A stretch of 63,982 bases of DNA, the filler included. It is 6 parts of 6 records of this genome, joined end to end, with 100 filler letters (N's around TTAATTAATTAA, not from the genome) between each part and the next. Parts side by side here need not be neighbours in the genome. Positions count along the whole stretch, not along the records: positions 1 to 20,955 come from SRR20825019_2142; 5 more parts are not named here. The stretch is one strand, 5' to 3'. The number at the start of each line of letters is the position of its first letter. The stretch's first letter is position 1. The notes beneath the pieces are model-generated. The model ran no database searches. It had not been told where the DNA came from and worked only from the letters and a program-made list of their open reading frames with translations. Below are positions 3,296-57,458 of the stretch, in pieces. The translations under genes were made by a program, and so were the position numbers.

Positions 3296-3377
3296 GTTTC
3301 GAGTTCTCTTGGTGGCGCAGCAAGACAATATGTAGAACCGTTTAACTCAAGATGTAGACCATTATTATAGATAGAGT

Positions 3378-4012
3378 ATGAGCGTTCACGAGCAAGCTTT
3401 GGACTTATACCCAGAAAGAAGGGTCTCTGTGGCTTTCTATGACAACGTAAAGAATGCAGGCGAGCTCAATGAGTCTCAAGTCAAAGGAGGTCTAGGGTTT
3501 GTTTTGCTGGATCCGGCCATGGTCGTAGATATGTTCGCTATTCTTGTAGCCGCTAGTTGTGCCGTCCACAACCACGAAACAAACACAATGACAACAAAAA
3601 CCCTAAACAACGAGTTCGTGTACTGCTTGTCCTCGAAAAAGGGTGTATGTGTCTTGCTCTTGTAAATTGATGGTGGATTGATAGTTGTGCTCTTATATTA
3701 GATCCAGGAAGCTTTGAAGAAGTTTACCATCACAGAGAGTAGCACGGCAATGTATGCGGTTGGGTTTGACGACGCGAGGGAAGGTTTCAACAAGATTGAG
3801 GGAGAACTGCACTCTGTTGCGAAGGCAGAAAATCATCGCAATGACTCGATGATCAAAAAGGTGCGACTGCTAGAGAATTCCAATGGGTTTCGTTGCTGAT
3901 ATTTGAGAAGCATTATCAAGTCAGTGAGGCTGAAACGGAGACGTCTGACTTGACCAGCTCGGTTGCCAGTCGAATTGCCAGTCGAGACGTTTTCCTGAAT
4001 ACCAAGAAATAG
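3378..4012 (+). CDS. TPRKB: EKC/KEOPS complex subunit CGI121/TPRKB
   Basis: Exons 3378-3644, 3702-3860, 3911-4012. Spliced protein LDLYPERRVSVAFYDNVKNAGEL...ILVAASCAVH...MTTKTLNNEFVYCLS..IQEALKKF...RIASRDVF matches the Cgi121 family along its length. Confidence 0.9.
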
Positions 4013-4098
4013 GCAGTGGTGTTGTGCGAAAAGGCAAGTCATACCCGGCAAAGAAAACCAACCAGAAATCGCAACTGTTCTGTGTTGAACTAAAGGTT

Positions 4099-6635
4099 TC
4101 ACTGTCGTTTCTCAACGGCCGAGTACTCTATCATGGCTATTGGAAGGGCTTGTGCCCCAGTGAAGATCACATATTCTTCGCTGGCGGCTGTTCGTGCCGT
4201 ATCCATGTCTTCGTTGCTACCAGGGGTTCGTCTTCCTGGAATGATAATCGAGTCATTCCCATCACTGGGAGCGGACCTGTCCTTGTCTTCAACGACAACT
4301 GTTTCGGTATTTCCCAGCGCCACCATGCAGAGAAGAGCCTTTCCAGAATTTCCGTTGAAATAGTGCGCCCGGCTCGCATACCGTGAGAAATATAAGCCTG
4401 TACAAGGCGTCAGACCACAATATGAGAGCGGTAGAGAGAGCTACCTTGGCCATACGGCTTAATTGGCGAGGCAGTCTTATTGAAGATGCTGTAGTCATGG
4501 AATCCATTTTCGAAGAAATCGAGCATCTCTGCGTACGGCTGTACGGTGCACATGTTAGCGTGATACATATTTGGAAAGACGGCTACTCACTCCACAATAG
4601 AATAATCTCATGATGTTGTAGGATGGTCTGTCTCGCAGTGTCTTCAGTTTCTCACTAAACTCATGCCTATGCCGGAAGCGCTCCTGCGATACCCGAAGAA
4701 CTGACTTAACCTTAAAGTCAGTCAGTCCATGTGCGTCACGCACAGACTGCTGGAGCTCATTCTCTATATGCGCCCACTCGGGAGATGACTTGTCTAGATA
4801 CGTAGTTTCCTCCTCTGAAGCAACAGCAGGCTCTCTTGGGATATTACCGCTGTCATTTTCATCATCCCCGCCAACTAAAAATACAAACATAGACTTCAGC
4901 TCTGGTGGCCATCAACCATTTCCATACATACCATCCAAGAGGCTTATGTCTGAAATGGACATCTGTCGGCCATTAGAGCTCGGGCCATCTTCATCGTCAC
5001 GGTTGTTCCCATCCAACTCTGCTAATTTGTCCCTAGCTTGTTTTGTCACAATATCCACCATCCTTTTGTTAATCTGCTTCCGATACTCCGCAAACTCACG
5101 ATCTGCAGAAACACTCAGCAACACCACTTGCATAAGAAAATGAAGCAAATATCTACCTTTAGATTCGTTATCAGACTTGAGACGCAAACATTCCCCTTGC
5201 AGATGTTCAATCAATACATCCTGACGCACCACTTTGTCCCGCAACCTTGTCAATTCATTCTTCATTTTTTCGAATAATATCAACTCATTACTGTATTCAA
5301 CCACCCGAGCTTTCCTCCAATCGTTCAAGTCTTTTTCTATGTCAACCATGGAAACGTACTCGTTTCTTTCCAGAGGAGTGGGCTTTGATGTAAGCTCAAC
5401 TCTACCACCAACATAGCTCATAAATATGGATTGATCCCACTAATATAAACGTCGGCGCAAGAAAACGATTCACAAGAAATCTCTTACGTTCTCAGTCAGA
5501 ATACTATAGTTGCTATTCAAGATTGGGTCATCGCTAAATTGATGCTTCTTAAAGAAGTCGACAGCGGAAGAGTCTGCATGGGTGATGAGAGAATCGTACT
5601 TCAATGACGAGGTACGCTGCTTGACCAACTGAAAAGATGTTAGGCCCGTTAGAGTTATTGGTAAAAACACCGCCATTACATTTAAGAGACGAGATCCTAG
5701 CCCCAAATGTTGATACTTCAAGCGAACACCAATAAGAGTTACTTGCAAAAGAGTTGCTCCAAGTTGGTTGGGGACGTACTCATAGCTAATTGCTCCCACC
5801 ATGCGCTCCTTCGGCTTGATAGGAGCATCAGGGTCTGTGCAGGTTGCTTCTTCGCGGAGATCTTTTGCATCCTCCTCCCAAGCATCCTTCAGATCCTTCA
5901 ACTCATCCTCGTCCTCATCCTGACGGAAACATATCAATAACACGAAATAGACAGATGAGGCTACGACGTACATCTGATGCAGCTGAATAGCTGTACGATG
6001 ATGAGTCATCATTAAGGTCCTTACTGGCAGCGCGGCGGGTTACTTTCTTCTCGACAAATTCCTTATCTTTGGTCAGTAGTTCTGGATCCTCCTTCTTACG
6101 CCTGCGCTCAGCCCTGATATCTTCATCACAAGTCAAAAAACTATTCCGCACGCTGAATGCGACAATGACAAATTTACATACCCTCTTCAGACCGGAGGAG
6201 TGCAACAGTTACGGACTGGGGCTTGCTGAGGAGATCCCGCAGGAAGTACTTTGCAACCCCAGGAAGGACATGATGATACAAACTCACTGTAGCGTTCAGC
6301 CATTCGTTTGATGTATGTTCATATACGTTGCAAGCATCCTTTTCTTCTTTTTCTTCCTCGTCCTCCTCGGATTCTCTGTCACTACCATCCACTTCCATGC
6401 CGTCATTCCCGTCGGCATCCTCGTCTTTTTCTTCGTCATCCTCGTCTTCGAGAGAAAGATCCAGAGCAGTTGCACAAAGCTCAAGCTTAAGGTGGTCCCG
6501 GCCCACTGTAAAGGGCTGCCCAACAGGACAGAGGAAGTCTCCGTCAGAAAATAGGCCTTCATTCGACCCTGGAACAGCCCTCGTCGAAGGAGAGTCCTCA
6601 AATCCTTTAGGGACTGCTATTACTCTAGTTGACAT
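4099..6635 (-). CDS. Multi-exon fusion: Gcn5/PCAF-like GNAT domain + coiled coil + PARP-like ADP-ribosyltransferase domain
   Basis: GNAT: YHHVLPGVAKYFLRDLL, MVGAISYE, GVRLKYQHLGLGSRLL, LITHADSSAVDFFKKHQFS, EN|WDQSIFMSY. PARP-like: RLFYCG|PYAEMLDFFENGF, YGQ|GLYFSRYASRAHYF, LLCMVALG, EEYVIFTGAQALPIAMIEY. The inter-domain junctions splice in frame through short GT-AG introns. Confidence 0.8.
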
Positions 6636-6839
6636 CACAGCGACACAAAGCAACCATTTCAAGTGTGTATTAGCTTGCGAGTATACTTATGCAATCCTCA
6701 AAGCGTAGCTGTCTTGATTAACGGCCTCATAACCCTCGTGTGGGGTGCACTCGAGAAAGGCGCACTGCCCAAAGCTGACCACACCAACTGGCGTATTAGT
6801 GGAATGAGTTGGTGAGGAGAACACACAATACTGGTGAGA

Positions 6840-7100
6840 GTCTTGCCGCGGCGAACCGCGGGCCGCATCACAGTGACTGAGTGATGACTCAGCGGGCCGG
6901 AGCGCCTGCCGGCCACGGCTCAGGCACGCTGCCGGGGACGGGGGCGACCGTCGGACGGCCTCGGACCGGATACGGGGTGGCGGGGTAGGGTACACGGTAC
7001 GCCCCGGCCCCGTACCACTGCCGGCGGCGCCGCCCCGGCCGGCCGGGCCGCCATGGACCACCTAAGCAACCTCACTCTCCGCCCGGCCAGGGCACTTTTT
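6840..7100. promoter_or_regulatory. GC-rich island upstream of the GNAT-PARP gene
   Basis: CpG-dense block containing CAGTGACTGAGTGATGACTCAGC. Confidence 0.5.
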
Positions 7101-20955: not shown

Positions 20956-21055
20956 NNNNNNNNNNNNNNNNNNNNNNNNNNNNNNNNNNNNNNNNNNNNT
21001 TAATTAATTAANNNNNNNNNNNNNNNNNNNNNNNNNNNNNNNNNNNNNNNNNNNN
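20956..21055. other. Artificial contig spacer (N44-TTAATTAATTAA-N44)
   Basis: N runs flanking a six-frame stop linker; identical at five places. Confidence 0.99.
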
Positions 21056-24000
21056 CTGCCCAGTCTGACTGCACATGCCAGTGCGAAAACTTGTTCAGTG
21101 GTGCTAGGTGCAACACCTGTGATGCTATGTGTGAGAACGGCGGGACTTTGTCTTCTGACTGCTCTTGCTCGTGTCCTAATGGATTCGGTGGAGCTCGCTG
21201 CGAAACTCCTTGTGCCAATTCCTGCAACGGCAAGGGTCACATGGGCGCCGGCTGCCAGTGCCAGTGCCACGATCCATGGGCTGGGGAAGACTGCAATACC
21301 TGCTCTCGTACTACATGCCAGCATGGAGGAACTGTTTATGGTGTTACCTGCTCGTGCATCAACTGTGATAACTTGTGGAGCGGCGATGACTGTGAATCTT
21401 GCGATGTGACCTGTGCTAATGGCGGTGTGCTTGACGAGTCCACTTGCACGTGCTCCTGCTCTGGTCTTTGGACTGGCCTTACCTGCGAGACCTGCCCTGA
21501 TACCCTCTGCATGAACGGCGGCACCTTTGTCAATACCAATGGCGAGTGCAAGTGCGTATGCACCGCTGCCTGGGCTGGCCATACTTGCTCCTCTCCGTCA
21601 ACCCCAGTTGATGCCAACGCTTCCTCGGTTGAAGTCAGCTCCACTGAGGCATATGTTGGTTATGCTTACAATGTTGAGGTTCACCCTCGTCGTTCCAATG
21701 GTGCCGCTCTGAAGTATCCCGGGGATTTCTCTCTGTCCGATTTGGACTTCGTTGTCTCCGGACCCGCGGGCATGGTCAGCAACATCCAGGTGGCCGCTGC
21801 TGGCAAGGATGGCTCTGTGCTACGTGTGACTTTCACCACCTCATCTGCCGGTGATCATATCATCAACGTTCGCATTGCATCCTCGGGTGACCACTTGACG
21901 GGAAGCCCCGCCACCATCAATGCCGTGGTCGCTGATGCCATGGATATGAAGGTTGCTGTGTTCACCCCGTTGGCATACTCCGATCCCGGGATGGTTCGTT
22001 ACACGACTTCTGGTGATTCTTGCCACAATTTGATTCGCCAGACCCTTACTGCCATGGGCATTCCTCATGATTTCATTGGTGTCAAGCCGATTGTCGACGC
22101 CGGCGGCGAGTTGTCCTTGTACAACCTCGACGGTTCTGCCAAGTACTATGCCACAATTTTTGCCAGTGGTCCTGCCCTTGAGTATGATGATGGAACTGGT
22201 GCGTGGCCTAGTGCTTTCAGTGGAAACTGGAATCTGAAGACCCAGCTTGAGGACTTCGAGCGCCGCTTCAACATTCGCCGTATCGTTCTTGGATCTCACC
22301 CCTGGAGCGAACCCGCTGTGGACTTTGTTTCTTCATCTATGGATCGTGTGCAGCTTTTCTTGCATCCTAATGCCGAGAACTTTGCCACTGGCCTCAAGCC
22401 TGGAGCAAACTTCTTCGTCAAGTCCTACTACACTGCTACCACCATTACTGACTCCACAAGCACCACCCCTATGGTGACGGATTCGAACGGCAATGCCGCT
22501 GCGGTCAAGTACGTGGCCCCTGATGGCAGGGAGCAGATGCACGGCTACTGGAGCTTCTCTCCTCTCGGTGGCCAGGATGCCTCACTTGCTTTCTTCCCCG
22601 CTATGGTCCAGTGGGCTACCCGCAACACCTATGTTGGAAACAGGAGGATCTTCCTCTCAATGCACATTGACGATCACATGCTTTACACTGAGACCTGGAA
22701 CCAGGCTGATGAGGCCAACACGGGTTTGTCATACCAGGACACCTGTGAGGATTTGGACTTCCACATTAACTGGCAGAACTCTGCTTCTTCGACTCTCCCC
22801 ACCGGCTCGATGCTCAAGCTTGATCTTGCCATCAACGGTTTTGGTGGAACCTACGACGAGGGTCGGCCAGAGAGCGAGAAGCTTGGCAAGTGCACCTTTG
22901 ACCGCCGTAATGACTTCTTCATGGTGTCGCACACCTACACTCATCAGAGCCTCGATGCCCCACGTGACTATGATGGATGCCTGAACGACTTGCAGCTGAA
23001 CAAGGACTGGCTCATCAACAATGTGTGCCCCGCTGACGACAATAGCCACTGCTCCATGAATGGTCTTGTGCCTCCCATGATCACTGGTCTCTTCAATGGT
23101 GATGCCTTGAGGGCCATGGAGACTGTTGGAATCCGCGGTGCCGTTGGAGACAACACTCGGCCGGAACTGCGTCCCAACAACATGTTCCATCCCATTATCT
23201 CTTCCTCTGGTGTGAATGGCCATGACGGCATTATCATTGCCCCCCGCCACGCCACCTATGTTTTCTACAACTGTATGAACGAGGAGCAGAACTTGAACCT
23301 CATCAAGCATGTCACGCAGCCCTTCTGGTTCCGCCTTCCCACGTTTGATGGTGTCAGCCTCTTTGACATCTACATGAAGGAGGGTGAAGATGTTGTGTCT
23401 TACCTTGCCGGCTACCAGCATGATGCCTTCATGTTCCATCAGGCCAATCTGCATGTGTTCGACTGGGTCGAGGATGGTGTCACTCGCACGGACTCTCTGA
23501 CAACCATGTGGGCTCGCGCCGTGCTGCGGCAGATGGATCGCTTCAATGCTCTTCCCATTCGCTCTCTTAGCTTCGACGAGCACATTGATCTCTTTGAGGA
23601 GCGCATGAACCGCGATAGTGCCGCCCCCGCCGGTCGCCTTTTCGTGAAGGATGGTGAGGCTCGTGCCGTTGGCGTGTCTACTTCTGGTTCCAATGCCGCC
23701 CGCGTGGTTGTGTCTGGTGTTGTTCCCGAGAGCACCTCAAGCCGCATGAGCACTACTTCATATGGACCCGACAACAACTTGTTCCTTTCCATGGCCGCTC
23801 AGGATAGTGCTACTGTCAAGTTCGCCACCCCCAAGACCTGGTCGTCTTCCATGGTGATGTCTGCCCGCTCCTCCTCTGCCTCTGGCCAGGCAAAGGTGCG
23901 CCCTACCTCCAGCAAGGCCCCCTCAAACAAGGGCTATGTTGCCCTGGCCGCATGCGCTGGTTTGGCCTTCGTTGCTATGGTTTCTGTTTTCGTGTTGGTG

Positions 24001-24171
24001 ACTGACAAGGGATCGTCACCTATGGGCAAGGTCACCTTCAGGATGCCCTCTCCCACCCATAAGGCTGTGTCCACTGAGGACGAAGTCCCCAATCGCCTTC
24101 CTCAGTCGATCCGCAAGCGCACCACCACCCGCGAGAGGCGCGACTTGGCCCGCATTGATGGTGCTTTGTAG
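21056..24171 (+). CDS. Membrane-anchored Agd3-like (CE18-type) polysaccharide deacetylase with N-terminal EGF-like repeats and a filamin/Ig-like domain; 5' truncated
   Basis: CxNGG..CxC...WxGxxC repeats (21056-21590); filamin-like VTFTTSSAGDHIINV...HLTGSP; Agd3 motifs RRIFLSMHIDD, SHTYTH, PPMITGLFNGDAL, VGDNTRP, PRHATYVFYNC, DAFMFHQANL; C-terminal TM helix GYVALAACAGLAFVAMVSVFVLV. Confidence 0.85.
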
Positions 24172-24271: not shown

Positions 24272-27200
24272 TCAAAATAGACGAGAGAGCCAGTAGTGGT
24301 ATCGTGCGGGAAGCCTCCCGGAGATGGCCACTGCCTCACGAACAACGGCATATACATCTAGCTTCTTGTTGGGCCCACCAATGCCCGCCAGAACTCGCGC
24401 ACATGACTCTGCGTCACATTGTTCCATCAGCACCGACCGGAACTGTGTCAGTATGGCGACGGTGACGAAGAAGGTGAAGGGAGCACCGCGCAAAGCCAAG
24501 TTATCCCACAACACCATCAGATCATCGACGGGGAAGATGCGGGCATATAGAGTAAGTAGCCAGGGCATTGCATATTGGTCTGGACTGCACCGGATAGCCG
24601 TCAAATGGTCAGCAAGCGGCGCATCAATAGCCAGAATAAGGGCCGCCACCGCACACACATCATCGGCCCACCGCCCCCGGGCATCAGCACTTAGATATTT
24701 CGTCGAAAACTTGGCCATGAATGCGTGGAGGATGGGGATGGCGGCGTCCTCATCGTTCTTGGCGGCCCACAGCGCCGCCTCGCCCACAATCCCCAGCCCT
24801 CTCACGTAGCCAAGCCCCTGACGCTCTTCAACAATTCCGTGCCACGACTTGAGCAGGGACCCGACCTTGGCACGCGACCGATCCGACACGTGGTGCAGCA
24901 GGCGGAGATCATCATCGATCATGCCTGCGTCGTGTGATTCAGCGTCGGGGTCACACTGGTATGGCATGTTTGGGTCTCTCATGTAATCGTTCAAGGCCGC
25001 CTGCCATACCATCAGGCGGCAGCCGTGGGGTAATCCGCGGTGGGCCTCCTGCTGGAGCTCCTTCTCAGTGACAGGATGGTGCTGGAGAAGCTCCAATATG
25101 TAATTCACACGGGAGGGTGAATCTTCTTTCTGCGTGAGCACATCACTGCCGTGGCCTGTCAATGGGACTGGTTGCCGACACATGAAGCACTCGTCCGTCC
25201 CCATCAATGTCTGCTGGCTACAAAGTTCGCATCGCCGTGGCGGTTTCGTGCCATACCGGTTTCGCGTAATGCCGAGGTCGACAAGTGTTCCAAGGATATG
25301 CCCGGCAACCCTATGGGGCTCGAGGAGCAATTTGCCTTGTAGTTGCTTCTCGGTATCGACGAGGCTATTGATTCGCCCAAGCACGAAGGCCTCGGCATCA
25401 CCTCCCGGTTTAGTGGATGACCCTTCGCTCACCTTCTTGAGCAGAGTCACAAGAATATCCCCACCTTCGCCCTCGGTGGATGCCTTGCGATTGTGCCGGC
25501 TGGCCCGCTCCAACTCTAAGCACTTTGTCCTCTCGATGTCTAGCTCGGCAACGACAGCATCGAATGACTTCTTCAGCGCATGTATCTCATTCTGTAGCAC
25601 CCGCTCCGCCTCATTTCTCTCATCCACTGCCCGGTCCACCTGTTCCTGCAAAATGGCGTGACGAGACATGATCGCCTCCACCTCCGCATGAGTGTATCCG
25701 ACCGGCGCAGGGGTTGAGCTCCTTGCACGGTCCATCTGTTCTTGGAGTTCAGTGCACTTCAGACTGGCTGCATTCTTGTCAAGTCTCAGGCGAGTGTTCT
25801 GTTCATCTAGGTCATTTTTCTTAGCCTCGAGGTCGGCGAGGGCGACTGCAAGCTGGTCCTTATCACGTTTAGCGCTCTCTGCAGTCTCGAAGGCCGCATC
25901 ACACTCGGATTGTAACCTTAGAACCTGCTCCTCGAGCGCCTCGTTGCTGCGTTCAAGGACAGCCATGCGTTGCTCCTCCGACTTCAGTGTGGAAGTCAAC
26001 GAATCCGATAGCTGCTTCTCAGCCATCATCTGCTTTTTCTCCCATCGATCCTGCATGGTCTTGGTATACTCGGCAAGCTTTCCCCGCATCTCGAGCACTT
26101 GATTATTCAGAGCCATGTTGGCATCCTTCATTTTGTTCCAGCTCGCTGCCCCGACCTTTAAACGGTTTTCAAGACTTTCATTGAGGTGCTTGGCCTCCTT
26201 AACTTCAGTCGTCAGGCTGGAAATCTGGTCTTCGTAGTACCGGCGCTCGCCCTCGGCGTGCCGGGCTCGCTCAACAGCGGCCTCCTTTTCGCCAGTGGCG
26301 CGTTGTACCTCAGAATCCTTGTCCGAAAGTTGAGTCTGCAATGATCTCAGCTCATTACGGGCAGCACGGAGATCGTCGGAAAGCTTTCCCGTCTTAGTGA
26401 CTTCTTGGTCAAGAAGTGACTTGAGGCTCATCTCAGACTCCTGCATACCCTGCATCTTGATCCGAACCGACTCCGCCTCCTGCTCCTTGAACCCGTCGAT
26501 GTTGGCCCGTAGGCCGTTGTACTTGTGCTCCATTAACACGCACTCTTGTTCCGCATCTAATCGTGCGGCACGCTCCGTTTCCACTAGCTCCACGTACTTG
26601 GACTCCTGCATTCGCTGCTTCTGCTTCTCGGACTCTACCAGCCTCTCCAGCACCTCCTTCTCCCATTCCAACTCGTGGTTCTTTTCAACCAGTGGACTGC
26701 GGATCAGAGCTGCATTGGCCAGCTCCTCCGGAGTCACATTTATGCGTTCACTGGCCAGGCGTTCCCTGGCAACTTCCAGCTGTGCCTCCAAATATGACCG
26801 CCCGCTATCGAGAGCAAGACGACGTTCCCGCTCGGTTGTCAATTCTCCTTGGAGATTCTTAATGTCATTGTGAAGCCCGGCCCTGTCCATCTCCAAACGA
26901 GAAACAGCCTCACTAGAAGAGGTTAGCTTTGCCCGGATCATGCTCTTGACTTCAATTTCTGCCTCCAGTCTTGACCGGGTTTCTTGCAGCTCTCTTTGCA
27001 ATCGTACAATGAGATCATGGAGTAGCTGCACCTCCCGGCGTGCAGAATTTTCGTGTTTCTCCAAGATTGCCTGGATTGGAGAAGGGGTCGCTGCTGCACG
27101 GGTGCTCCCAGGAGACGTCCCAGAGCCCGCCCCCGGGCTGCCGGAACCCAAGGGGGTGAAAGCCGACCCGAACTTATTGCTGCCGGGGGGAGCAGGGTGG

Positions 27201-30200
27201 GCCGGGGGGCGCGCCAATGGTGCTCGCTTACCGACAGAACCCGGTGGAGTCGCGATCTCATAGGGATTCTTGGTGGGCGGATCGTCAAGGAACGCCGCCT
27301 CAGAAGCTATTGAAACGATCGATTGCCTGTGCGTCTCGTCTTCACCTGCTGCATCCGCAGCATCTCTAGTCAATAGGGCAGACTTGAGGCTGTTGCTCCT
27401 TGACTTTGCTGCGGCCTCTGCGGCCATAGATCCGATCCCCCCAGCCTCATTCTCCAACGACAACTTACGGCTAACCTCCAGCACAGAGTCGACCTCATTA
27501 GAATACTTGTTGACCACTCGCTTCCTCTCCATGTCTATTGATTTATCCATCATCATACGATTATTACCCATTGCTGACCGACCGGCTGGATCAGGTGTTG
27601 CCGATGGTGCGCGGCCCTTAATGTTGACTCTTTGTGCCCGGTACGCCTGTTTCTTTCTCCACAGCCCCTGGACCACCAGCACCATCGTGTAAGTCTTCGT
27701 GTACTCATTTTTGTCCTTCATCATCCGTGCCGAATTCTGTAGAGTGATCGTCGCATTCTTATAGCGATTCCATCCTTGATGGCAACGCTGCTCGAAGCCC
27801 CACGCCCGCTGTGCCCGCTGAAGAACCCTTGCCGCATTTCGCACTCGGGTATACTTCTTGCGGGCCACGTAGCCACGGGTCTTCCTCTGGATTTTAACTG
27901 CCGCCCTCGTCTGCCGTTCGTGCCTTACATGCTGCCTGGCCACCATTCCCCTTCCTACACGCTGGATAGTCGCAGACGCCTTCTTAATGTTCGAATAAGC
28001 CAGCTGCTGTGCGTGTCCACGGAATCGCGTTTGGATTTTGACTGCCGCTTCTCTCATCTTAGTCTCGCGTGCTACTTCAACGGCTGCAAGCTGCCCTGCT
28101 CTCAGGAATATCTTGGTCCGCCCCACCTTGCATTCGTCCTCCTTCATGAGCTTCTTCATGATGAAGCGACAGCCTTCCTGAAAATTCCCTTCCTTTGCAT
28201 AGTCGCGATGAGGAATATCTCTCACGAGCATCTCGTAGCGGTAGTAAAAGTCCTCGTGCGTCTTCCGATTGGGAAATCCAACCGCGCTGATCCGAATAGA
28301 TTCCATCACACCCCCGCATTTCAGCTGATGAAGCACCATCTCGCTTTCAAATATACGCCCCTTCTTACGGGAATTCGGCTTTACGCAACGAATGTAATGC
28401 GTCGCACTGCGATCAATGGTCTCCATGAGCTTCGACAGTGAGTCTTTGAACTGACTGCCAACAGACACCATCTTAAAGTTAGACTGCGAGGTGGGCCGAT
28501 TTTGATGGGGATGACGACCCGGTGTGGACGATCCACGAGCTGCCGGCCTTGGCTCTTGTTCGACCAACGCAAACATATCTCTTATGTATTCGCTCTTTGA
28601 CGATGAAATTAATCTCACGTGCTCTTGGACAATGAAATCCTTGTTCTTTTCAAGGAAGGTGTCCGTACTATACGTCACGGGTCCCATGTGGTGGTCAATG
28701 GTAAATTGGGTGTTGGAAACACGGGGCTTGTGGATACAGGTGTGCTTCTGGAGGAGGTGCTCATAGAACTTCCGTGCGAGGGACTCGTGCGTAGATCTTG
28801 GCAAGATACATTCATCGTCCAACAAGGCCAATATGCCCATAGGCTTCTCAATGAGGTCTAGCACCGCCTGATTATCCCCAAAGTCTATGTACTGCCACGG
28901 GATTTCCTCTCGGGCGTATTCCTGCTGCTCCTTCTTGAACAACTGGTTTGTAAATTGCTGTTGCAGGCGCTCATTGGCGTAGTTGATGCAGAACTGTTCG
29001 AAGCTATTGGAACCAAAGCTTTCAAAGCCATAAATATCAAGAACCCCTATAATACCATCGGCGGACGAGGTGTTGTCAATGGACGCGTTGATACGCCTGA
29101 CCAGCCATTCGAACAGCTTTCCATATATGTTCTTTGCGAGCGAATCTCGCGAATGGACTGCCTGCTGCGGTGTAAGAGGAAGGGAATACTCCTCCCGACC
29201 ACCCGCAGTAATTCGGCGAGACAAAAGAGCAGCGCGTAGACTGTCTTCCTCAACATTCAGCAGGTGTGATGCCGCCTGCACTGATTTCTCGTTCAATATG
29301 ACAGCACCTTCTCCTGCCGGATCCTTATCAAACTCGATATCCCCGAGGTGCAACAGAGACGCGACAAGACGAAACACAAAATCTACTTCTGCCTCCAATA
29401 GCCCCACAACAGACATAGCCTTCCTCAACAGCCGGAATCGCTCAACATCGTCTACACCGTCAATTGATGTGCACCCACTCTGCGAAAGGTAAAAGTGGTC
29501 CTCTGGACAGCCCAACCGCAACTCTTGTCGCATTTTTTCATCGGCTCCTCGTGTAAGCTGATAGAAGACGTGGAAGTTCCGTTCATACTCCGACTGGTGT
29601 ACAAGACGAGACTTCTCAAGGAGATACGTGCGAATGGTCGCACCAGCGATAGCCGAATTCTTGTCAAACTGGATCTCAATGAACTTTCCAAATCGAGAGG
29701 AATTGTCGTTCCTCTGAGTCTTAGCATTCCCAAAGGCTTCTAATATGGGCGTGCTCTCTAAAACCTGGTCCTGGATGTTTCTATTTCCTGTGATGCCCCC
29801 GCGACTGGCCAAGTATTCCATTACAATCTTCGTCGTAACTGTCTTGCCAGACCCACTCTCACCGCTCACCAATACACACTGGTTGATACCATCCCCCTGA
29901 AGTGACCGGAACGCCTCGTCCGCCACAGTATATACATGCGGTGCAGCCTCTCCATATCGCTTGCCATAATAGCTCTCCATAACAGACTTCTTATAAAGCG
30001 GCAGGTCTCTGTAAGGATTCACCGCAATCAACATTCCAAAGTTGACGCCCACATTGGTGTATATCTTGTCTGTGCGGAAGCGTTCTCTCATGCTGTGCAA
30101 CACAGCCGCATCATGCAAAAACGAAAGAGATACAAGGTCGTCTGATGCCTCGACAACCGTGGGATTCATCCGAAGAACATCCGAATCGCTCACTACAGCT

Positions 30201-30370
30201 ACTTCGCCGTCGTTCTGTCTAACTTCAAGCCTTCCGCCATCTCCCACTGACATGACAGATCCCGGAACCCACAACTCCGTCTCATTCGGCACGAAAACCC
30301 GCGAGCCCTTTCCCAGTGGTGGGAGGCCCTTCGGAGGGGTTGCCGGCACACGTGCAGGCGTCGACGTCAT
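24272..30370 (-). CDS. Myosin heavy chain (class V/XI-like motor, IQ neck, coiled coil) with C-terminal CxxC-CxxC motif and TBC/Rab-GAP-like domain
   Basis: GESGSGKT P-loop, LEAFGNAKTQRNDNSSRFGK, DIYGFE, FEQFCINYANE; ~5-6 IQ motifs; long coiled coil; CELC...CFMC; TBC hallmarks GLPHGCRLMVW, YVRGL, YAMPWLLTLY, LWDNL. Intronless, 2032 aa. Confidence 0.93.
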   Translation of the reverse strand: MTSTPARVPATPPKGLPPLGKGSRVFVPNETELWVPGSVMSVGDGGRLEVRQNDGEVAVVSDSDVLRMNPTVVEASDDLVSLSFLHDAAVLHSMRERFRTDKIYTNVGVNFGMLIAVNPYRDLPLYKKSVMESYYGKRYGEAAPHVYTVADEAFRSLQGDGINQCVLVSGESGSGKTVTTKIVMEYLASRGGITGNRNIQDQVLESTPILEAFGNAKTQRNDNSSRFGKFIEIQFDKNSAIAGATIRTYLLEKSRLVHQSEYERNFHVFYQLTRGADEKMRQELRLGCPEDHFYLSQSGCTSIDGVDDVERFRLLRKAMSVVGLLEAEVDFVFRLVASLLHLGDIEFDKDPAGEGAVILNEKSVQAASHLLNVEEDSLRAALLSRRITAGGREEYSLPLTPQQAVHSRDSLAKNIYGKLFEWLVRRINASIDNTSSADGIIGVLDIYGFESFGSNSFEQFCINYANERLQQQFTNQLFKKEQQEYAREEIPWQYIDFGDNQAVLDLIEKPMGILALLDDECILPRSTHESLARKFYEHLLQKHTCIHKPRVSNTQFTIDHHMGPVTYSTDTFLEKNKDFIVQEHVRLISSSKSEYIRDMFALVEQEPRPAARGSSTPGRHPHQNRPTSQSNFKMVSVGSQFKDSLSKLMETIDRSATHYIRCVKPNSRKKGRIFESEMVLHQLKCGGVMESIRISAVGFPNRKTHEDFYYRYEMLVRDIPHRDYAKEGNFQEGCRFIMKKLMKEDECKVGRTKIFLRAGQLAAVEVARETKMREAAVKIQTRFRGHAQQLAYSNIKKASATIQRVGRGMVARQHVRHERQTRAAVKIQRKTRGYVARKKYTRVRNAARVLQRAQRAWGFEQRCHQGWNRYKNATITLQNSARMMKDKNEYTKTYTMVLVVQGLWRKKQAYRAQRVNIKGRAPSATPDPAGRSAMGNNRMMMDKSIDMERKRVVNKYSNEVDSVLEVSRKLSLENEAGGIGSMAAEAAAKSRSNSLKSALLTRDAADAAGEDETHRQSIVSIASEAAFLDDPPTKNPYEIATPPGSVGKRAPLARPPAHPAPPGSNKFGSAFTPLGSGSPGAGSGTSPGSTRAAATPSPIQAILEKHENSARREVQLLHDLIVRLQRELQETRSRLEAEIEVKSMIRAKLTSSSEAVSRLEMDRAGLHNDIKNLQGELTTERERRLALDSGRSYLEAQLEVARERLASERINVTPEELANAALIRSPLVEKNHELEWEKEVLERLVESEKQKQRMQESKYVELVETERAARLDAEQECVLMEHKYNGLRANIDGFKEQEAESVRIKMQGMQESEMSLKSLLDQEVTKTGKLSDDLRAARNELRSLQTQLSDKDSEVQRATGEKEAAVERARHAEGERRYYEDQISSLTTEVKEAKHLNESLENRLKVGAASWNKMKDANMALNNQVLEMRGKLAEYTKTMQDRWEKKQMMAEKQLSDSLTSTLKSEEQRMAVLERSNEALEEQVLRLQSECDAAFETAESAKRDKDQLAVALADLEAKKNDLDEQNTRLRLDKNAASLKCTELQEQMDRARSSTPAPVGYTHAEVEAIMSRHAILQEQVDRAVDERNEAERVLQNEIHALKKSFDAVVAELDIERTKCLELERASRHNRKASTEGEGGDILVTLLKKVSEGSSTKPGGDAEAFVLGRINSLVDTEKQLQGKLLLEPHRVAGHILGTLVDLGITRNRYGTKPPRRCELCSQQTLMGTDECFMCRQPVPLTGHGSDVLTQKEDSPSRVNYILELLQHHPVTEKELQQEAHRGLPHGCRLMVWQAALNDYMRDPNMPYQCDPDAESHDAGMIDDDLRLLHHVSDRSRAKVGSLLKSWHGIVEERQGLGYVRGLGIVGEAALWAAKNDEDAAIPILHAFMAKFSTKYLSADARGRWADDVCAVAALILAIDAPLADHLTAIRCSPDQYAMPWLLTLYARIFPVDDLMVLWDNLALRGAPFTFFVTVAILTQFRSVLMEQCDAESCARVLAGIGGPNKKLDVYAVVREAVAISGRLPARYHYWLSRLF

Positions 30371-30479
30371 TGATGACCACCCGCGCTACTTGACAGATTT
30401 GAGCTTAGACTAGCTCATACATAAAGTTGATATACACCAGATGCTGCGTTTGGTCCTCAGCCTTGCTACCAATAGGTCG

Positions 30480-33380: not shown

Positions 33381-33480
33381 NNNNNNNNNNNNNNNNNNNN
33401 NNNNNNNNNNNNNNNNNNNNNNNNTTAATTAATTAANNNNNNNNNNNNNNNNNNNNNNNNNNNNNNNNNNNNNNNNNNNN
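33381..33480. other. Artificial contig spacer
   Basis: N44-TTAATTAATTAA-N44. Confidence 0.99.
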
Positions 33481-43120: not shown

Positions 43121-43220
43121 NNNNNNNNNNNNNNNNNNNNNNNNNNNNNNNNNNNNNNNNNNNNTTAATTAATTAANNNNNNNNNNNNNNNNNNNNNNNN
43201 NNNNNNNNNNNNNNNNNNNN
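43121..43220. other. Artificial contig spacer
   Basis: N44-TTAATTAATTAA-N44. Confidence 0.99.
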
Positions 43221-50088: not shown

Positions 50089-50188
50089 NNNNNNNNNNNN
50101 NNNNNNNNNNNNNNNNNNNNNNNNNNNNNNNNTTAATTAATTAANNNNNNNNNNNNNNNNNNNNNNNNNNNNNNNNNNNNNNNNNNNN
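50089..50188. other. Artificial contig spacer
   Basis: N44-TTAATTAATTAA-N44. Confidence 0.99.
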
Positions 50189-57358: not shown

Positions 57359-57458
57359 NNNNNNNNNNNNNNNNNNNNNNNNNNNNNNNNNNNNNNNNNN
57401 NNTTAATTAATTAANNNNNNNNNNNNNNNNNNNNNNNNNNNNNNNNNNNNNNNNNNNN
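57359..57458. other. Artificial contig spacer
   Basis: N44-TTAATTAATTAA-N44. Confidence 0.99.

Follow-up and report, generated by a model that had tools for sequence, protein, structure and literature searches.

The window analysed here, a stretch of 63,982 nucleotides joined from six parts, carries on its minus strand, from position 6635 to position 4099, one expressed gene of nine exons. Its 704-residue protein is a member of a eukaryotic family, old, conserved and so far uncharacterised, that joins a Gcn5-like GNAT domain to a PARP-like domain. The original prediction, made from the letters of the stretch, had proposed that short open reading frame (ORF) fragments at this place are spliced through small GT-AG introns into one protein. 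The nine exons were chained from such ORF pieces, with splice sites placed by eye and checked by script. The spliced frame comprises 2115 nt (704 codons), begins with the ATG at 6635 and ends with the TGA at 4101-4099. All eight introns are of the GT..AG type and measure 61, 52, 51, 48, 54, 57, 52 and 47 nt. As had also been predicted, no single ORF contains the PARP core motif, because intron 8 splits it. The motifs LLQVTLIG, QHLGLG, LFYCG and EEYVIF, read by eye in the prediction, were all recovered in the spliced frame.

Transcript evidence came from two assembled contigs, X1 (2804 nt) and X2 (2172 nt), which stem from two public runs of one sample in one study; the kind of library is not on record. 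That sample carries 65-71% of the words sampled from the region. Each of X1 and X2 lies as one contig on the window, from 6655 to at least 4084. In both, 8/8 predicted introns are missing at the predicted bases, and all skips, intron 5 included, read CT..AC on the plus strand. This clean removal of all introns indicates that the contigs derive from spliced RNA and from one mRNA. The single mRNA that had been supposed is thereby established to the standard that assembled contigs permit.

Intron 5 (5103..5156, minus strand; 54 nt, GTAGAT..CAG) is in frame and free of stop codons, so that its coding status is ambiguous from sequence alone. Its retention as coding sequence was ruled out, as both cDNA contigs splice it out. 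In blastp the model without intron 5 also matched the homologue P0002 slightly better (357.8 vs 348.8 summed bits). At 6655 both contigs carry 21-24 loose letters that resemble, when reverse-complemented, what we take to be the 3' part of the SMART template-switch oligo. This identity would put the 5' end of the mRNA about 20 nt upstream of the ATG.

The gene and its parts are arranged as follows.

4099..6655, minus strand: transcription unit as seen, with the cDNA 5' end at ~6655; contig X2 ends at 4084
6182..6635, minus strand: exon 1, residues 1-151 plus 1 nt; N-terminus, acidic insert 1, first GNAT helices and strand
6336-6458, minus strand: acidic insert 1, residues 60-100, Asp plus Glu 61%
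5972..6120, minus strand: exon 2; basic helix and onset of the Ser/Asp/Glu-rich insert that splits the GNAT domain
5680..5919, minus strand: exon 3; end of the acidic insert, GNAT beta3 and beta4, acetyl-CoA loop
5781-5779, 5745-5743 and 5712-5695, minus strand: in exon 3, residues E248, Q260 (Gcn5 Glu position) and QHLGLG, respectively
5488..5628, minus strand: exon 4; GNAT helix 'AD..A..FF...F.DD' and a strand, counterpart of Gcn5 'ADNFAIGYFKKQGF'
5157..5439, minus strand: exon 5; final GNAT strand (W..S..M motif), after which the long helix or coiled coil sets in at about residue 362 (5340)
4932..5102, minus strand: exon 6; remainder of the long helix (to ~5020), followed by an acidic linker of low confidence in the homologue model
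4591..4874, minus strand: exon 7; linker, followed at about residue 512 (4779) by the N-terminal half of the PARP-like domain, up to LFYCG
4596-4594 and 4593-4591, minus strand: in exon 7, C573 (PARP His position) and the following G574, respectively
4445..4538, minus strand: exon 8; middle of the PARP-like domain, with contig joints 4538>4591 and 4396>4444 (side 95)
4099..4397, minus strand: exon 9; core of the PARP-like domain with Y608 (4392-4390), S614, F619 and E680 (4176-4174), then the stop codon

An upstream ORF of 10 codons in another frame (6657-6625, minus strand) runs across the main ATG; its start codon falls at the very edge of the cDNA 5' end at 6655 or beyond it. Further upstream, a GC-rich island at 6850-7060 contains several short inverted and direct repeats. 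An Rfam scan over 1-20955 gave nothing at gathering score.

One could suspect that the gene is an artefact of wrong joining, in which the exons combine two adjacent genes, stem from a pseudogene or line up as ORFs by chance. The raw ORF pieces indeed stay under the curated cut-offs of Pfam: the GNAT models reached 16.7 and 16.4 bits on the unspliced piece (cut-offs 27 and 20.7), and PARP (PF00644) reached 20.9 bits on the exon 9 piece (E 2.7e-4, cut-off 26.7). Word-index homology searches with the helix piece and with exon 9 both gave no match, which is weak evidence for this tool. Furthermore, X2 has an extra, frame-shifting T behind 5264. This T, however, sits within an A/T run and occurs neither in X1 nor in the window. 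Moreover, the eight introns are exactly removed in two contigs that cover start to stop, the spliced frame is open, and full-length homologues align collinearly with it. In blastp against a database of 70 proteins, the spliced model is collinear with P0025 across residues 258-700 (37% identity, E 9e-84), with P0011 across residues 107-700 (E 5e-69) and with a sea anemone protein across residues 241-699 (E 1e-43). We regard a wrong joining as very improbable.

With the raw pieces under the Pfam cut-offs, the domain calls rest on the family profile and on homologues. A profile built from 17 members was searched against all solved structures. On the PARP side it matched tankyrase-1 (E 2.6e-13) and PARP3 (E 6e-13), as well as ZAP, PARP4, PARP10 and PARP1. 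On the GNAT side it matched Tetrahymena Gcn5 (E 1e-11), KAT2A (E 4.6e-10), PCAF (E 2e-8) and also yeast Gcn5; with a GNAT-only profile the best GNAT other than Gcn5 appeared at E 3.9e-5. The features of exon 9 were nearest to PARP clusters in the ESM Atlas (score 0.95).

AlphaFold models were used of two homologues, from Cyanophora (826 aa) and Trimastix (334 aa, pLDDT 85). The Cyanophora model shows a confident GNAT domain in two parts (20-110 and 265-385), a single helix (396-487) and a confident C-terminal domain (580-820). Residues 102-175 of the window protein match residues 32-105 of this homologue in blastp, which form GNAT N-lobe elements in the model. The stretch equivalent to the insert that splits the GNAT domain (111-265 in Cyanophora) is modelled at pLDDT <50. 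The long-helix region appears in the two models as single helices of 92 and 74 residues. The GNAT domains of the homologues, modelled at pLDDT >90, matched GNAT structures at Z 12-19. For Cyanophora the best were yeast Gcn5 (Z 18.7, root-mean-square deviation 3.1, 159 aligned residues) and the SAGA HAT module (18.6), with other GNATs at 16.1 or below. The C-terminal domain of Cyanophora superposed on tankyrase-2 with Z 20.8 (root-mean-square deviation 2.5, 176 aligned residues, 28% identity), followed by PARP10 (19.3), ZAP (18.9), RCD1 (16.8) and TASOR (15.4). Foldseek with the 826-residue Cyanophora model returned only PARPs among the matches listed (E about 1e-12), because the PARP-like domain filled the list. 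With the Trimastix model the matches listed were Gcn5/PCAF throughout, to rank 43, and Gcn5 also gave the highest Z values (16.8 and 16.1). Gcn5/PCAF is thus the closest among the GNATs both by profile and by fold of the homologue models. Profiles and models agree with the predicted domain order, i.e. an acidic N-terminus, a split Gcn5/PCAF-like GNAT domain, a coiled coil or long helix and a PARP-type ART domain, and the structural superposition on Gcn5 and PARPs that had been proposed as a check succeeded on the homologue models.

The GNAT domain shares with Gcn5/PCAF (KAT2) the Q/RxxGxG loop, the 'AD..A..FF...GF' helix and the C-terminal W/Y...LM strand. It differs from them by its long acidic inserts inside the fold, by a Gln in place of the beta4 Glu and by its fusion to a helix and a PARP-like domain. 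Neither a bromodomain nor a PCAF N-terminal domain was matched in the pieces of the window or in 57 scanned relatives; the C-terminus is PARP-like instead. The PARP-like domain has the ART fold in common with the PARPs (closest are tankyrase-1/2, then PARP3, PARP10, PARP4 and PARP1), whereas ankyrin, SAM, WGR and regulatory domains are absent from the window protein. Lacking the beta4 Glu of Gcn5, the bromodomain and the PARP His, the protein was assigned to neither family, but to a family of Gcn5-like GNAT and PARP-like fusions.

A HMMER search with the GNAT piece of the window retrieved 69 proteins at E<=1e-3, of which 13 reached E<=1e-10. Site by site, the spliced model was then aligned with all hits and residues were counted over the rows covering each site. 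Rows with junk or frameshifted tails (P0009, P0047, P0050, P0069) and near-duplicates (P0070, P0071) were dropped. The GNAT sites read as follows.

Q260, Gcn5 Glu position (beta4): Gln 45, His 12, Glu 3, Asp 2, Leu 1 (n=63)
Q271, first position of the CoA loop: Gln or Arg in 64/65
G274, first Gly of the CoA loop: Gly in 57/65
G276, last position of the CoA loop: Gly or Ala in 65/65
D300, Asp of the 'AD' motif: Asp in 57/59

The acetyl-CoA pyrophosphate loop Q/R-x-x-G-x-G/A is present as QHLGLG. The general-base Glu of beta4 (E173 of yeast Gcn5) is not kept: the profile alignment puts Q260 of LLQVTLIG on the Glu of Tetrahymena Gcn5 'RFAEVAFLAV', as the original prediction had read it. At the position of E248, at the end of beta3, most rows carry Asp or Glu. 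Among the 61 rows covering both positions, 52 are acidic in beta3 and non-acidic in beta4. The reverse was found in four rows (two unnamed protist sequences and two frogs), and in no row (0/61) are both positions acidic. If relatedness is ignored, the chance that all four rows with an acidic beta4 fall among the nine with a non-acidic beta3 is about 2.4e-4. The strand limits of the models (277-286/294-302 in Cyanophora, 117-126/134-142 in Trimastix) set the E248 and Q260 positions opposite each other, provided that the hairpin ends pair. This alternation fits a general base that has moved rather than one that was lost. If the adjacency holds, a carboxylate shifted to the next strand may leave the acetyltransferase active, despite the effect of E173Q in yeast Gcn5. 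The claim that both catalytic sites are altered was therefore overstated for the GNAT domain, where E248 alternates with the Gcn5 position.

In the PARP-like domain the His of the H-Y-E triad, which contacts the adenosine ribose of NAD+, is replaced. The profile alignment puts C573 of LFYCG on the His of tankyrase 'MLFHGS', which bears out the H-to-C reading of the original prediction. It thereby ruled out the Tyr of LFYCG, which a second alignment by eye, our own, had suggested for the His position. The counts for this domain were:

C573, PARP His position: Cys 8, Gly 7, Ala 3, Ser 2, Val 1 (n=21), i.e. His in 0/21
G574, residue after the His position: Gly 13, Ala 8 (n=21)
Y608, PARP Tyr: Tyr in 19/24
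S614, PARP Ser: Ser in 14/22
F619, second aromatic site: aromatic in 15/19
E680, PARP Glu: Glu in 16/18

Of the residues that contact NAD+ in tankyrase, only the His is lost in the window protein; the Gly that follows it, the 'YF' Tyr, the Ser, the second aromatic residue and the Glu each have their counterpart in the alignment. The retention of Tyr, Glu and the acetyl-CoA loop, also predicted, is thus seen in the profile alignments and in the family counts alike. The altered GNAT and PARP sites are conserved family-wide, with neighbouring sites constrained, and do not reflect local decay.

Known PARPs with incomplete triads offer a comparison. ZAP/PARP13, plant RCD1/SRO1 and TASOR share the PARP fold with the present family. 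According to passages of PMC7532188, ZAP and RCD1 have lost two or more NAD+ contacts, TASOR is more degenerate and occluded, and the pocket of ZAP is occluded as well; the loss of at least two contacts is what that source words as the mark of a pseudo-PARP. In the GNAT-PARP family, in contrast, only the His is lost and the Glu is kept. The same passages state that all active PARPs keep the NAD+ contacts other than the Glu. The Cys in place of the triad His, together with a retained Glu, is also described, in an excerpt of PMC2964712, for clade 1D PARPs of land plants. These, however, are members of the PARP1 clade with WGR/PRD and SAP domains and no GNAT domain, and most of them have lost the Tyr, too. 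This position between active PARPs and pseudo-PARPs, with the His alone lost and the Glu kept, favours a ligand-binding or targeting role or a weak, atypical transferase.

It is conceivable, as the first option of the original prediction had it, that neither domain is catalytic and that the protein is a dual pseudoenzyme, a scaffold or metabolite sensor limited to the binding of acyl-CoA and/or a nucleotide. Gln or His at the Gcn5 Glu position in 57/63 rows and the complete lack of His at the PARP position would agree with this, as would the finding, reported in part of PMC4398931, that E173Q kills yeast Gcn5. Non-catalytic PARP folds do exist (PMC7532188, in the passages cited above), and those of ZAP, RCD1 and TASOR are among the structures matched. 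On the other hand, exactly one carboxylate on beta3 or beta4 in 56/61 rows, and never two, suggests that a chemical role has been kept. The CoA loop is conserved, and the PARP-like domain has its Glu and Tyr, unlike known pseudo-PARPs. On balance we consider a dual pseudoenzyme unlikely.

Conversely, the protein could be a true bifunctional enzyme, with acetylation by the GNAT domain and mono-ADP-ribosyl transfer by an active PARP-like domain, which would hold NAD+ or a related dinucleotide in spite of the missing His. In that case two marks would be written, or coupled, by one polypeptide. The nicotinamide-side residues and the catalytic Glu are conserved in protists and animals, and the closest solved folds, tankyrase and PARP10, are active PARPs. 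The absence of the His from every family row that covers the triad position weighs against such an enzyme, as do the rule on NAD+ contacts in active PARPs quoted above (PMC7532188) and the clade 1D PARPs with Cys for His, whose activity is called unclear in the same excerpt of PMC2964712. Full activity of both domains is, in our opinion, a similarly doubtful proposition.

At about an even chance we favour, from the conservation of the sites, a GNAT-PARP gene that encodes a probable acetyltransferase with a moved base and a PARP-like module for ligand binding or targeting. The protein consists of a Gcn5/PCAF-type GNAT domain with acidic disordered inserts, a single helix of about 90 residues, a disordered linker and a C-terminal domain of PARP-type ART fold. 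The GNAT domain is predicted to bind acyl-CoA and probably still acts as an acetyltransferase, its general-base carboxylate having apparently moved from beta4 (Q260 here) to E248, the beta3 residue predicted to face it. The helix is probably a coiled-coil stalk that pairs two chains. In the PARP-like domain the His that holds the adenosine ribose has given way to a small residue, which is Cys in the window protein and Gly, Ala or Ser in others; the nicotinamide-side Gly, Tyr, Ser, aromatic residue and Glu are retained. This domain may serve to bind a ligand or for targeting, and so to direct or gate the acetyltransferase; as a mono-ADP-ribosyltransferase it would be weak or atypical at most.

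Several points weigh against this interpretation. The window's own raw pieces stay under the Pfam cut-offs for GNAT and PARP alike, and both structural models depict the homologues of Cyanophora and Trimastix, not the protein of the window. The adjacency of beta3 and beta4 is inferred from DSSP strand ends rather than from coordinates. Five of the 61 rows have a carboxylate at neither position, and there are at most three independent swap events, because the two frogs are kin. The Gln of the family is the same change as E173Q of yeast Gcn5, which the cited part of PMC4398931 employs as a catalytically dead allele. In addition, the strong retention of the PARP Glu and Tyr is unexpected for a purely non-catalytic module, and the family has lost one NAD+ contact compared with two or more in ZAP, RCD1 and TASOR (PMC7532188, same passages).

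A bolder idea, which we hold to be quite improbable, is a two-cofactor enzyme perhaps dating from early eukaryotes, in which a remodelled PARP-like subsite would be coupled, via a dimeric stalk, to a moved-base Gcn5-type acetyltransferase. The small residue in place of the His would reshape the adenosine-ribose subsite for a dinucleotide other than plain NAD+; candidate ligands are NADP+, a 3'-phospho-ADP (CoA-type) ligand and O-acetyl-ADP-ribose. If true, acetyl-CoA chemistry would be directly linked to the chemistry of NAD-derived nucleotides.

The family is widespread. Pfam was scanned over 57 of the 69 relatives (eleven of <=175 residues and P0055 were omitted). A GNAT model matched in 53 of these at E<=0.01, and 17 showed both GNAT and PARP matches, 13 of them above the Pfam PARP cut-off. 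Members outside the animals are Cyanophora paradoxa, Trimastix marina, a picozoan and Pigoraptor chileana. Early-branching animals are represented by the sponge Sycon ciliatum and the cnidarian Actinia tenebrosa, echinoderms by Patiria, Holothuria, Diadema and Lytechinus, and molluscs by Liolophura, Haliotis, Elysia and Plakobranchus. Further members are found in the nemertean Tubulanus, the tunicate Styela, lampreys and two frogs. No mammal, insect, nematode, yeast or plant was found among the named members that were looked up. The ESM Atlas contains two GNAT and PARP clusters, one of 58 members (mostly chordates) and one of 60 members (mostly rotifers). A word-index search with the family alignment found only 3 proteins, all of them already in the set.

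In a maximum-likelihood tree of 34 rows, a non-holozoan group, which includes the window protein, is separated from a holozoan group with support 100/98. Within the holozoan group Pigoraptor branches first, then the sponge. The nearest relatives of the window protein are protist sequences, which led us to reject a fungal origin that the style of the introns had suggested. This topology fits old and largely vertical descent with many losses.

The database labels of the named members read uncharacterised or 'N-acetyltransferase domain-containing' throughout. No description of the family was found in a literature search whose coverage stopped short of subscription journals and supplements. Likewise, the word 'acetyltransferase' is absent from the PARP survey of Citarelli 2010 (PMC2964712), and in passages of a 2026 preprint on fungal PARPs 'GNAT' occurs only within 'Gnathostomata'. 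In line with the original prediction, this literature search yielded no characterised protein of the same architecture. It is not private to this genome, however, but belongs to a widespread family that is already public as 'uncharacterized protein'. What is new is the recognition of the family and of its conserved non-canonical sites; the sequences are already public with automatic domain calls.

Gcn5-type acetyltransferases and PARPs are among the best-studied writers of protein marks, each dependent on a central metabolite (acetyl-CoA and NAD+, respectively). Here both folds occur on one polypeptide, each with a family-wide change at its textbook catalytic residue and with the remaining site conserved. 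The gene itself is ordinary, i.e. real, spliced and expressed, and the interest lies in the family. Its absence from the usual model organisms may explain why it has been neglected. It offers a testable example of a catalytic residue shifting to the neighbouring strand in a GNAT domain, a natural test of a PARP fold without the histidine, and a candidate link between acetylation and ADP-ribose biology.

Three vertebrate members, P0068 (Pelodytes), P0052 (Pelobates) and P0057 (Lampetra), gave no Pfam PARP match at E<=0.01, and their Tyr and Glu motifs are degenerate. The PARP-like part may be decaying in vertebrates. The two frogs P0068 and P0052 are those with the swapped beta3/beta4 carboxylate, and the lamprey P0057 has neither carboxylate.

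Downstream of the GNAT-PARP gene, X1 continues into a convergent neighbour on the plus strand.

3375-4012, plus strand: CGI-121/KEOPS-subunit gene (PF08617, E 1.6e-15)
3858-3907, plus strand: intron of this gene, seen in X1
~3646-3701, plus strand: probable second intron, from a loose end at 3702

The stop codons of the two genes are about 86 nt apart, and X1 joins both 3' ends. At position 4000 X1 has C for T, a synonymous change of an Asn codon in the CGI-121 gene as worked out by hand.

Elsewhere in the window, five spacers of 44 N, 12 bases and 44 N (20956-21055, 33381-33480, 43121-43220, 50089-50188 and 57359-57458) separate the pieces, and long ORFs crossing them are artefacts. Pieces 1-3 look eukaryotic. 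Pieces 4-6 (43221-63982) look bacterial: their GC content is 57-67%, and they carry LutA/LutB/LutC-like genes with overlapping ends, an EamA transporter, PtsI and two class I/II aminotransferases. This suggests a mixed assembly of a eukaryote and a bacterium. Two long frames of the second piece were also seen.

21004-24168, plus strand: Agd3-like deacetylase with a CBM87 domain and EGF-like repeats, whose frame begins inside the spacer between pieces 1 and 2
24275-30385, minus strand: intron-free frame of 2037 codons with a myosin head, IQ motifs and a RabGAP/TBC domain

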